This document shows positions 28,511-29,718 of a stretch of DNA of 64,000 bases, in pieces. Positions within the stretch are counted from its first letter, which is position 1. Every line of letters starts with the position of its first letter. The stretch is from IMG/VR virus record IMGVR_UViG_3300029305_001279. One strand, 5' to 3'. Under the pieces are notes generated by a model that ran no database searches, had not been told where the DNA came from, and saw nothing but the letters and a program-made list of their open reading frames with translations. Source of the DNA: a virus. A program made the position numbers and the translations under genes.

Positions 28511-28664
28511 CCTCGTGGGCCGGGGAGCCAACCAGGAGGCACACATTTCCCTGTTCAAGGGACTGGATGCCGACCCTGTGGAAGATCCCACCGTAGAGGC
28601 CCCTGGAGCGGTCAGCAAGGCCGACCCCGACCGCTTCGACTACATCACCGAGGCGTTCCCCTGA
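28470..28664 (+). CDS. short protein with an XkdF/scaffold-like N-terminal motif and a DRFDYI C-terminal motif
   Basis: ATG 28470 lies 7 nt after AAGGAG. Sequence MATLLKNMKLTSVDLVGRGANQEAHISLFK...KADPDRFDYITEAFP*. Confidence 0.5.
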   Translation: MATLLKNMKLTSVDLVGRGANQEAHISLFKGLDADPVEDPTVEAPGAVSKADPDRFDYITEAFP

Positions 28665-28665
28665 C
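28656..28665 (+). other. candidate +1 programmed frameshift site UUC-CCC-UGA-C
   Basis: The +1 slip gives ...DRFDYITEAFP-DSVEKFNPFHDALGRF.... The conserved motif lies upstream of the first ATG (28720) of the downstream frame. Confidence 0.55.
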
Positions 28666-29718
28666 TCAGTAGAGAAATTCAATCCGTTCCATGATGCCCT
28701 GGGCCGCTTCGCCAATAAGATGGGCTTCAAGACGTACTCAGCCAATCCGAAGCTGAAAGCCGCGCAGCCTTCCATTATGCGTGCGCATCAGGCGGGCCAC
28801 GGCCGCGTCCTGAATGCCCACCGGGAATCCAAGGGCGAGAGCATCACCCAGAATGCCCACTGGCTGCAAACCGGCCAGAAGCCCGCCGTGCCGGCCGCTG
28901 TCAGCAGACAGCGGTACCAGCAGCGGAAGCAAAGGCAACAACAGCAGGCCCAGCAGCAACAACAGAATCAGCAACCGCAACAACAAAAACCCCAGCCCCA
29001 ACAACAAAAACCCCAGGTTCAATCACAGAACCCAAGCGCAGGTGTTTCCTCCGGGAAGGCGGCCAATGCCGTCAACGGGCAGGATTTGTCTGGAAAGTTC
29101 CAGTTCAGCAGAAGCTCAAACGATTACGCTATTGAGCAGGTCATCAAGGCCCAGGGCTTCGATGGCAAGCCGACGCTGACCAGCGACAAGGCGGCCTTCT
29201 CACAGGCCTGCCAGGCATCCAACTTCATTGCCAAGCGCGGTGTCGGTGCTTCCAATCAGCAGACCCTGAATGCCTATGACCAGAACCTGAAGACCGGCGA
29301 GTTCTACGTGAAGTGCTCAGGCGGATCCGTCCATGGTTACGGGATGTATGCTGCATCGGTCGCGGTAAAAGGCAGCAGAGCAAGCTCCGGTATCAATGAT
29401 GCCGAGAGCACAGCGAAGGCCTATTGCCGAGGGAATAACGCCCAGAAGATCTACACCATGACTCTGGATAAGAGCGCCAAGGTCGGGACAGAAACCCAGC
29501 TGAAGCGACAAATGGCCAGGGATACGGAATTCCAAAAAGCCTGCAACAACAGCGGCATGAACAGCCGGTACACCTATGACGTGGGTGTCTATGCGGCCTA
29601 CAAGGGATACGATGCCTACATAGCAGGTCGCGGGCGGTATTCGTCTGATGGTTCGTCATCTGACTACACCGTTATCCTGAACCGCTCAAAGGTCATCATC
29701 TACGACCCGACTGTGTAA
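28663..29718 (+). CDS. FNPFHD-motif protein with a poly-Q linker and a C-terminal domain of unknown function (putative cargo effector)
   Basis: The frame is open from 28663. Q-rich linker (~28909-29032, QQRKQRQQQQAQQQQQNQQPQQQKPQPQQQ), then a ~210-aa globular region. Confidence 0.55.
   Translation, partial: DSVEKFNPFHDALGRFANKMGFKTYSANPKLKAAQPSIMRAHQAGHGRVLNAHRESKGESITQNAHWLQTGQKPAVPAAVSRQRYQQRKQRQQQQAQQQQQNQQPQQQKPQPQQQKPQVQSQNPSAGVSSGKAANAVNGQDLSGKFQFSRSSNDYAIEQVIKAQGFDGKPTLTSDKAAFSQACQASNFIAKRGVGASNQQTLNAYDQNLKTGEFYVKCSGGSVHGYGMYAASVAVKGSRASSGINDAESTAKAYCRGNNAQKIYTMTLDKSAKVGTETQLKRQMARDTEFQKACNNSGMNSRYTYDVGVYAAYKGYDAYIAGRGRYSSDGSSSDYTVILNRSKVIIYDPTV

Follow-up and report, generated by a model that had tools for sequence, protein, structure and literature searches.

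A probable shifty-stop frameshift cassette joins a scaffold-derived leader to a cargo protein in a phage head-gene cluster

Introduction

How can a conserved protein motif be translated when no start codon precedes it in its own reading frame? This question is raised by a short interval of the virus record IMGVR_UViG_3300029305_001279 (IMG/VR), of which a stretch of 64,000 nucleotides, called the window below, was analysed. At positions 28656..28667 of the window, a 64-codon open reading frame (ORF) ends in TTC CCC TGA, and the +1 frame past this stop codon leads directly into DSVEKFNPFHDALGRF. An earlier note on this DNA had drawn attention to the junction and to a second one of the same kind at 27460. 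Here we compare the junction with those of related phages, weigh the ways in which the two frames could be joined, and describe the genes around it. Our analysis suggests that the fused protein is very probably made through a programmed +1 ribosomal frameshift of the "shifty stop" type.

Two reading frames meet at a UUC-CCC-UGA-C junction

The upstream partner at the junction is the zero-frame leader ORF 28470..28664 (+ strand, 64 codons), whose ATG is preceded at a distance of 7 nucleotides (nt) by AAGGAG and whose product is homologous to the N-terminus of a scaffolding protein. It terminates ...KADPDRFDYITEAFP-TGA (..FDYITEAFP-TGA), with TTC at 28656-58, CCC at 28659-61 and TGA at 28662-64, and the zero frame meets another stop 9 codons past this TGA. 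The downstream partner is the +1 frame, which reads DSVEKFNPFHDALGRFANK from 28663, has a methionine at 28720 and stays open through 29718 (28663..29718, + strand, 351 codons and a stop, cargo protein 2). Only 27 codons of this frame are open 5' of the motif, with no ATG, GTG or TTG among them, and its first start codon is the ATG at 28720. The residues encoded 5' of this ATG (DSVEKFNPFHDALGR) include the module-start motif KFNPFHDALGRF (28675..28710, + strand), and the +1 ORF as a whole would be reached only by a frameshift. These coordinates and translations agree with the earlier note, according to which the short ORF ends in TGA before a +1 continuation and the motif block has no initiation codon of its own.

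The cassette TTC CCC TGA CTC (28656..28667, + strand), which is kept in the 23 junctions of relatives described below, would place UUC in the ribosomal E site, CCC in the P site and UGA (28662-64) in the A site, followed by a 3' C. As CCC is followed by T, re-pairing of the tRNA from CCC to CCU (28660-62) is possible, and the same holds for all 23 related junctions. The predicted fusion has 415 residues (64 + 351), and the predicted trans-frame junction peptides are FDYITEAFPDSVEK here (site 2) and FDHIEEFDFPDSVEK at the other junction (site 1). The earlier proposal of a fusion through a +1 shift was supported by all sequence-level tests that we ran, and its size, put at ~400 residues, is corrected to 415.

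The 12-mer TTCCCCTGACTC is present in exactly two copies in the window, both on the + strand and both terminating an ORF. One is the junction at 28656-28667, and the other is the sister cassette at 27460-27471 (site 1), which ends a 937-codon polyvalent/protease ORF, so the nucleotide context is indeed the same at both sites, as had been noted. The expected number of matches with at most one mismatch in the window is ~0.31. The DNA flanking the two copies is ~80% identical, and the identity is maximal at the cassette. Among the 64 window ORFs of at least 80 residues, the site-1 ORF is the only one that ends in CCC and a stop.

The fused form is conserved among relatives

DNA of relatives came mostly from ENA/Logan contigs, and scans of IMG/VR and JGI metagenomes with the cargo protein gave only 5 loci. 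The junction table contains 23 distinct junctions from ~14 related contigs (L002, L004, L005, L017, L069, L113-L123 and the window), which are phylogenetically related and do not represent 23 independent events. All 23 consist of TTC CCC followed by a stop codon (TAA in 16, TGA in 6, TAG in 1) and never by a sense codon, and the base after the stop is C in 20 of them. The +1 frame enters (D/N/S)S(V/I)xKFNP(Y/F)HDxxGRF directly and forms an ORF of 170-370 codons. When the motif instances at the loci of this clade were sorted by position, 24 (and one more that the script had mislabelled) were inside a long ORF, 7 were 10-12 codons past their own start, and 23 were behind TTC CCC and a stop, with none left unexplained.

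The variation around the junction follows the +1 frame. Within the 14-codon motif block, pairwise differences at the first, second and third codon positions of this frame are 2.49, 2.13 and 7.64, and the stretch from the stop to the motif differs by indels of 3 or 6 nt (NSV, NSSV, NSSSV). No ATG, GTG or TTG lies between the stop and the motif in any relative. The ATG at 28720 is not conserved, as His or Arg takes its place in L005, L113, L123 and L017 and in the homologues P0001, P0046, P0056 and P0075, and no Shine-Dalgarno (SD) sequence was found upstream of it.

Searching with the 415-residue fusion gave 452 homologues (E<=1e-3), the majority of them called from an internal ATG, and most of the top 120 matches span ~75-80% of the fused query. 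For some homologues, the call begins at a spurious start further upstream in the +1 frame and gives ..SPDSVEKFNP or ..SPNSVEKFNP; at the DNA level, the second of these implies TTC CCC TAA C. Two homologues from more distant relatives, P0066 (403 residues) and P0103 (392 residues), are true single-frame forms (MATKLIGLRLTSVDLV...SKSDPDRFDTICEVEKFNPFHDARGRF...) with the junction ..DPDRFDTICEVEKFNPFHD.., and their loci (L006 and L007) have the same gene order as the window. Aligned at the DNA level, the single-frame homologues are shorter by exactly 13 nt (TTCCCCTAACTCR) or by 16 nt where a further GNG codon is included. The block missing from P0066 and P0103 is TTCCCCTRACTCR with or without GNG (13 or 16 nt), a cassette of 3n+1 nt whose insertion point lies between GAG and GTN-GAR-AAR. 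At site 1, dozens of homologues join the XkdF protease, the motif and an ADP-ribosyltransferase (ART) domain in one frame, with 100% query coverage. A megablast search of 24600-31300 against GenBank phages gave no match.

On comparative grounds, these observations show that the +1 region is translated without a start codon of its own and that the fused protein is the ancestral, functional form. Judging from the contigs compared, the arrangement is a clade-wide cassette and not a peculiarity of one genome.

Proposed frameshift mechanism and alternative explanations

We propose that ribosomes initiate at ATG 28470, which has a good ribosome-binding site (RBS), and translate the 64-codon leader as far as UUC-CCC-UGA-C, where peptidyl-tRNA(Pro) would occupy the P-site CCC with a slowly decoded stop codon in the A site. 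The C-terminal Pro, the penultimate Phe and the 3' C would all make termination at this UGA poor. Some of the ribosomes would re-pair tRNA(Pro) from CCC to CCU, read GAC next and continue in the +1 frame, and pairing of the upstream GAGG with 16S rRNA would probably assist, as in prfB. The 415-residue product would contain the scaffold-derived leader, the EAFP|DSVE junction, the KFNPFHDALGRF motif, an adaptor, a Gln-rich linker and a C-terminal domain of ~220 residues, and ribosomes that terminate would free the 64-residue leader alone. By the same steps, the cassette at 27460 would add a C3/VIP2-like ART to the polyvalent/prohead-protease protein.

The junction could instead mark the border of two independent genes, with the cargo translated from ATG 28720 (332 residues) and the KFNPFHD block left untranslated, for example as a recombination site for cassette swaps. 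Most public gene calls do use ATG 28720, and recombination is plausible at module boundaries, where the motif lies. The variation in the block is nevertheless biased to the third position of the +1 frame, the indels upstream of the motif come in multiples of 3 nt, and single-frame homologues exist; at site 1, the first Met of the +1 ORF is ~115 codons in. The earlier note had named a start at ATG 28720 with an untranslated motif as the rival of the fusion, and such a start is disfavoured, since this ATG is a His or Arg codon in several relatives and has no SD sequence, and the +1 block is under purifying selection. We consider two independent genes very improbable. Termination at UGA could also be followed by a restart a few codons on, at a non-canonical codon, so that two polypeptides are made. 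The conserved stop would fit this, tight coupling is common in phage late operons, and a TAA-ATG coupling is found at 4728-4734 of L114. Reinitiation leaves the invariance of UUC CCC unaccounted for, however, and no relative offers an ATG, GTG or TTG between the stop and the motif, while conservation of the +1 frame begins at the first post-shift codon, (D/N)S, and homologues show leader and cargo working as one chain. Its chance of being correct appears slim.

The frame could be restored in the RNA if RNA polymerase slipped on the C4 run (TTCCCCT) and one C was lost, so that some mRNAs encode the fusion. The product would be the same (..FP-DSVEK..), and the two routes are formally inseparable by sequence. 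Known productive transcriptional slippage, though, takes place on much longer runs, typically of at least 7-9 A or T, which weighs against slippage on C4. Slippage also needs no stop right after the run, yet a stop follows CCC in 23 of 23 junctions and is swapped only for another stop. The conserved UUC, the 3' C and an SD-like element at the spacing of prfB are ribosomal features that slippage leaves unexplained, and we regard it as highly unlikely. We infer ribosomal rather than RNA-level slippage. A broken gene, whether a frameshift mutation in a pseudogene or an assembly or sequencing error, might be suspected from one genome, as a single-nt disruption of frame in a conserved motif resembles a sequencing indel. 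However, each genome has the identical cassette twice, the sequence inserted relative to the in-frame form is 13 or 16 nt long and not 1 nt, and the downstream ORFs are intact over 280-370 codons and under purifying selection. A sequencing error, which had been considered in the earlier note, is ruled out by the recurrence of this junction in more than 14 independent assemblies from different samples, and the broken-gene explanation is effectively refuted.

SD-like element, RNA structure and genetic code

Most of the 23 junctions (17) have an SD-like element (GGAG, AGGAG or GAGGTG) whose end lies 3 nt before CCC; the distance is 5 nt in 3 others and 9 nt in the remaining 3. In the window, the element is AGGAG at 9 nt from CCC at site 1 and GAGG (28650..28653, + strand) at 5 nt from the CCC shift codon at site 2. 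The earlier note had placed this GAGG 5 nt before UUC, from which it is actually separated by 2 nt.

Several points weigh against the frameshift reading. The shift in vivo and its efficiency are predicted from sequence, and the putative role in capsid loading and stoichiometry from fusion partners, gene order and analogy. The 23 junctions share ancestry, so they represent fewer independent events. The SD spacings in the window are 5 and 9 nt and not the optimal 3, so this stimulator may be weak or irrelevant here, and the SD-like element is confounded with conserved Glu codons (GAG). No conserved 3' RNA structure (alifold consensus -2.6 kcal/mol; single-sequence z-score +1.24), and hence no extra stimulator, was found; this absence fits the pheL/prfB type of site.

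Stop codon reassignment or readthrough was considered as another route to the motif and rejected, because the motif belongs to the +1 frame, a second zero-frame stop follows 9 codons on, all three stop codons terminate window ORFs, and there is no suppressor tRNA. An Rfam scan of the window found tRNAs only. A tRNA cluster at 13248-14118 contains Thr(TGT), Gly(TCC) and Lys(TTT), which were confirmed by Rfam, and a tRNA-Phe with the anticodon AAA (13248-13321), which was called by ARAGORN without Rfam support. Neither a tRNA-Pro nor a suppressor tRNA was found in the window. An adjacent-ORF junction at 4730/4732 of L114 was examined as a further recoding site and rejected as ordinary TAA-ATG coupling with an RBS (4728-4734).

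Comparison with known frameshift and fusion systems

The +1 site of prfB, the gene of release factor 2 (RF2), is AGG GGG UAU CUU UGA C. The phage sites resemble it in that a re-pairable P-site codon is followed by a zero-frame stop and C, no 3' structure is needed and GAC is read next, and in 17 of 23 relatives the SD-like element lies 3 nt 5' of the shift codon, as in prfB. They differ in the shift codon, which is CCC and not CUU, in the window spacings of 5 and 9 nt, and in the product, which is a structural/cargo fusion and not a release factor. An autoregulatory logic like that of prfB, in which the site senses RF2, was rejected, as the stop at the homologous site is most often TAA and can also be TAG.

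A closer match to the codons themselves is found in Escherichia coli pheL, where UUC_CCC_UGA gives a 15% shift that needs the penultimate Phe and the 5' context but not the 3' sequence (Gurvich et al. 2011, PMC3082878). The two window sites have these same codons in the E, P and A sites. In pheL, the +1 product is unconserved and the shift is apparently incidental, whereas here the +1 ORF is long and conserved and has single-frame homologues, which suggests that the shift has been put to use.

Sites of this type are also known from late (virion) genes of Firmicutes phages, where two products arise from one start in a set ratio: SPP1 gene 17.1/17.1* uses CCC_UAA with a product ratio of 3:1, and tsh of the Listeria phages PSA, A118 and A500 uses CCC_UGA (PMC5009743, PMC6316719). 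By those shifts, tail-tube or capsid proteins gain Ig/FN3-like decoration domains. Here, in contrast, the added part is enzyme-like cargo, the partner is a prohead-protease polyprotein or a 64-residue scaffold fragment, there are two sites per genome, and the pheL-like UUC and the SD-like element are conserved.

The gene neighbourhood matches that of polyvalent proteins (Iyer et al. 2017, PMC5512222) and of MuF toxins and MuF-VIP2 proteins (PMC5576092, PMC7302621). MuF is followed by a multidomain protein with 2H phosphoesterase and ART-type domains, the C-terminal protease is assemblin-like, the effectors vary, and a VIP2/C3-like ART is tied to head proteins. These papers describe single-frame fusions and do not mention frameshifting, and PRFect lists MuF/VIP2 gene pairs merely as possible frameshift candidates. 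Here, a domain past the "always C-terminal" protease would be reached by recoding. The likeness to retroviral Gag-Pol is one of logic only, in that an abundant assembly protein and a rare enzyme-extended form with the same start would co-assemble. The systems are not homologous, and direction and mechanism differ, as retroviruses shift by -1 at a heptamer with a pseudoknot and Ty1 uses a hungry codon for its +1 shift.

The mechanism proposed here is of a known kind, and what is new and unusually clear is the context of head cargo, the two sites per genome and the defined 13/16-nt cassette. Attachment of effector domains by two such sites in one genome has no described precedent.

Gene context and an apparently split scaffolding protein

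The site is located in a phage head-morphogenesis cluster, which begins with a MuF (SPP1 gp7-like) gene (23569..24498, + strand; PF04233, E 7e-16). The next gene is the 937-codon polyvalent ORF (24655..27468, + strand), which contains a 2H phosphoesterase and a C-terminal XkdF-type prohead protease and ends ..FDHIEEFDFP-TGA at site 1. Downstream of cargo protein 2, a third cargo module (30047..31297, + strand) is encoded in a single frame without a frameshift and consists of a leader, ..DQFDVIEEVTKFNPYHDEKGRF (motif 30347-30382) and a domain. It is followed by a stand-alone C-terminal part of a scaffolding protein (31357..31941, + strand, 194 residues; phrog_17741 positions 244-396, E 1.5e-34), then by the cement gene (31959-32387) and the major capsid gene (32412-33443).

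PHROG 17741 (397 residues) matches three pieces of this cluster, namely the leader (positions 2-41), the N-terminus of the 30047 ORF (84-162) and the 194-residue protein (244-396). A tblastn search with the leader and motif gave only two weak matches, one of which is MT835491, an unrelated gut phage. The scaffold position of MT835491, with the XkdF protease on one side and the cement and capsid genes on the other, is occupied by a single protein of 413 residues. Residues 1-33 of the leader are 67% identical to the N-terminus of this protein, and the 194-residue protein is 44% identical to its C-terminus. From these identities and the gene position, the 64-codon ORF is assigned as an N-terminal fragment of a scaffolding protein. 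The scaffold, a single protein of ~400 residues in MT835491 and PHROG 17741, appears to be split in three in the window, with two pieces serving as leaders of cargo modules and one as the stand-alone 194-residue protein.

Two small ORFs flank cargo protein 2 and its leader. The first, of 54 codons (28346-28510), follows the ART ORF and runs into the start of the leader, and ORFs of 54-56 residues are found there in L115, L117 and L120; as a guess, its product could be a small immunity or antidote protein for the ART. A 67-codon ORF (29802-30005) after cargo protein 2 ends ..NIDEIKEV-TAA, like the FDxIxEV half of the junction motif, and nearly all relatives have an ORF call of 61-70 residues at the equivalent place. 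This ORF may represent a leader-like module that lacks cargo.

Motif and cargo domains

In the window, KFNP(Y/F/N)HDxxGRF is found at 24688, 25546, 27482, 28678 and 30350, in keeping with the recurrence of the block that had been noticed earlier. KFNPYHDxxGRF, which is widespread in phage polyvalent proteins, was found in 168 distinct contexts in the fetched loci (mostly IMG/VR), with up to 10 copies per contig or polyprotein, and it is always at module starts, in many unrelated phage contigs (L008-L112). It often lies 10-25 codons past a start codon, the usual preceding element is (R)FDxIxE(V), and in L011 and L048 it comes directly behind the HPxCRC end of MuF. No Pfam model covers it, and a literature search for FNPYHD-type strings found no paper. 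It is possibly a packaging or processing signal.

The site-1 +1 ORF (27467..28330, + strand, 287 codons) contains the motif and a cargo domain with a C3/VIP2-like ART fold. Its AlphaFold2 (AF2) model has a predicted local distance difference test (pLDDT) score of 81, and Foldseek against the PDB gave C3bot1 (E 2.7e-10, target-normalised template modelling score ~0.7) among matches to the C3 exoenzyme, VIP2 and CDTa ADP-ribosyltransferases. R150 (LTRYD), S194-T-S196 and E241 are invariant and form a candidate R/S-T-S/E triad; there is no Q/E-x-E pair and no Pfam match. On the strength of the structural model, the extension is probably a C3/VIP2-like ART with putative activity. This ART would follow a protease that the literature on polyvalent proteins places always C-terminally.

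Cargo protein 2 at site 2 has a conserved YSANPK...GHG...NxHRESxGE segment after the motif, followed by a Gln/Pro-rich linker (~28909..29028, + strand, AF2 pLDDT <50) and a C-terminal domain of ~220 residues (~29050..29715, + strand). The homologue P0174 joins the YSANPK...GHG...NxHRESxGE segment to an ART domain. The leader and both cargoes had no match in Pfam, NCBIfam or PDB sequence searches. The poly-Q linker and the unassigned C-terminal domain of the earlier note both stand. Structure prediction of this domain, which had been suggested there, gave a model with pLDDT 70-94 and no PDB fold match at E<1. BFVD gave, as best matches at E 2e-8 to 3e-5, large phage proteins that have not been characterised and a fusion of protease and MuF, and similarity to PARP/ART-PolyVal is weak (E ~8e-3). 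An ART assignment for the site-2 domain is not supported by these two results.

Relatives carry ART-PolyVal or Gln_amidase domains in neighbouring or equivalent slots, and such variable effectors are the pattern of polyvalent proteins and MuF toxins (PMC5512222, PMC5576092, PMC7302621). We also observed three paralogous (L/I)(T)HNHP regions (24655-26500 and 30700-31000), reading GNALTHNHPSS, NATIHNHPDGG and VTLTHNHPGEFGG, each behind KFNPYHD and none with a Pfam assignment. In relatives, the third of these slots holds Gln_amidase (PF15644) instead.

Proposed role of the frameshift

The chances are about even that the frameshift serves to dose cargo, by analogy with Gag-Pol, so that a low and fixed minority of the carriers is extended by an effector. 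The carriers would be the scaffold leader at site 2 and, at site 1, the protease polyprotein. Potentially toxic cargo would be taken into the procapsid in a few copies by the scaffold or protease partner and later released and injected. As with the ribosomal nature of the slip, the shift efficiency, the targeting to the capsid and the role in stoichiometry are what we infer. A wider proposal, which we put forward only tentatively and think rather doubtful, is that TTCCCCTRACTCR is a portable recoding cassette placed repeatedly at the boundary of head-cargo modules (..FDxIxE | V/xEKFNPYHDxxGRF..), where it would act as a tunable valve for the number of effector copies per capsid. Such a valve could sense the termination or tRNA(Pro) status of the host, and KFNPYHDxxGRF would serve as the signal for packaging or processing in a general phage system of cargo loading.

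On the frameshift reading, public gene calls are wrong at these junctions in this phage clade, where the annotated cargo begins at an internal ATG or at a spurious start further upstream. The miscalls hide the KFNP motif and the link between the cargo and its scaffold or protease carrier. UUC_CCC_UGA, judged incidental in pheL, would here be naturally used and evolutionarily maintained, with prfB-like SD spacing and twice per genome, and would offer a clean comparative system for the efficiency of shifty stops in Firmicutes. The arrangement suggests recoding, and not separate promoters or fusions, as the means by which some gut phages dose effectors carried in the virion, such as a C3/VIP2-like ART. 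It also points to N-terminal fragments of scaffolding proteins as capsid-targeting leaders, which could help to engineer cargo-loaded capsids.

Genome size and host

The related contigs are 62-74 kb long and come from human-gut-type metagenomes, which hints at a genome of ~70 kb. L113 (JAZNPV010000025.1, 69.6 kb) is a near-complete relative and the sole match in a scan of genome contigs, and it was binned with a metagenome-assembled genome of Faecousia sp. (Oscillospiraceae). This binning gives a hint of the probable host, a member of the Oscillospiraceae.

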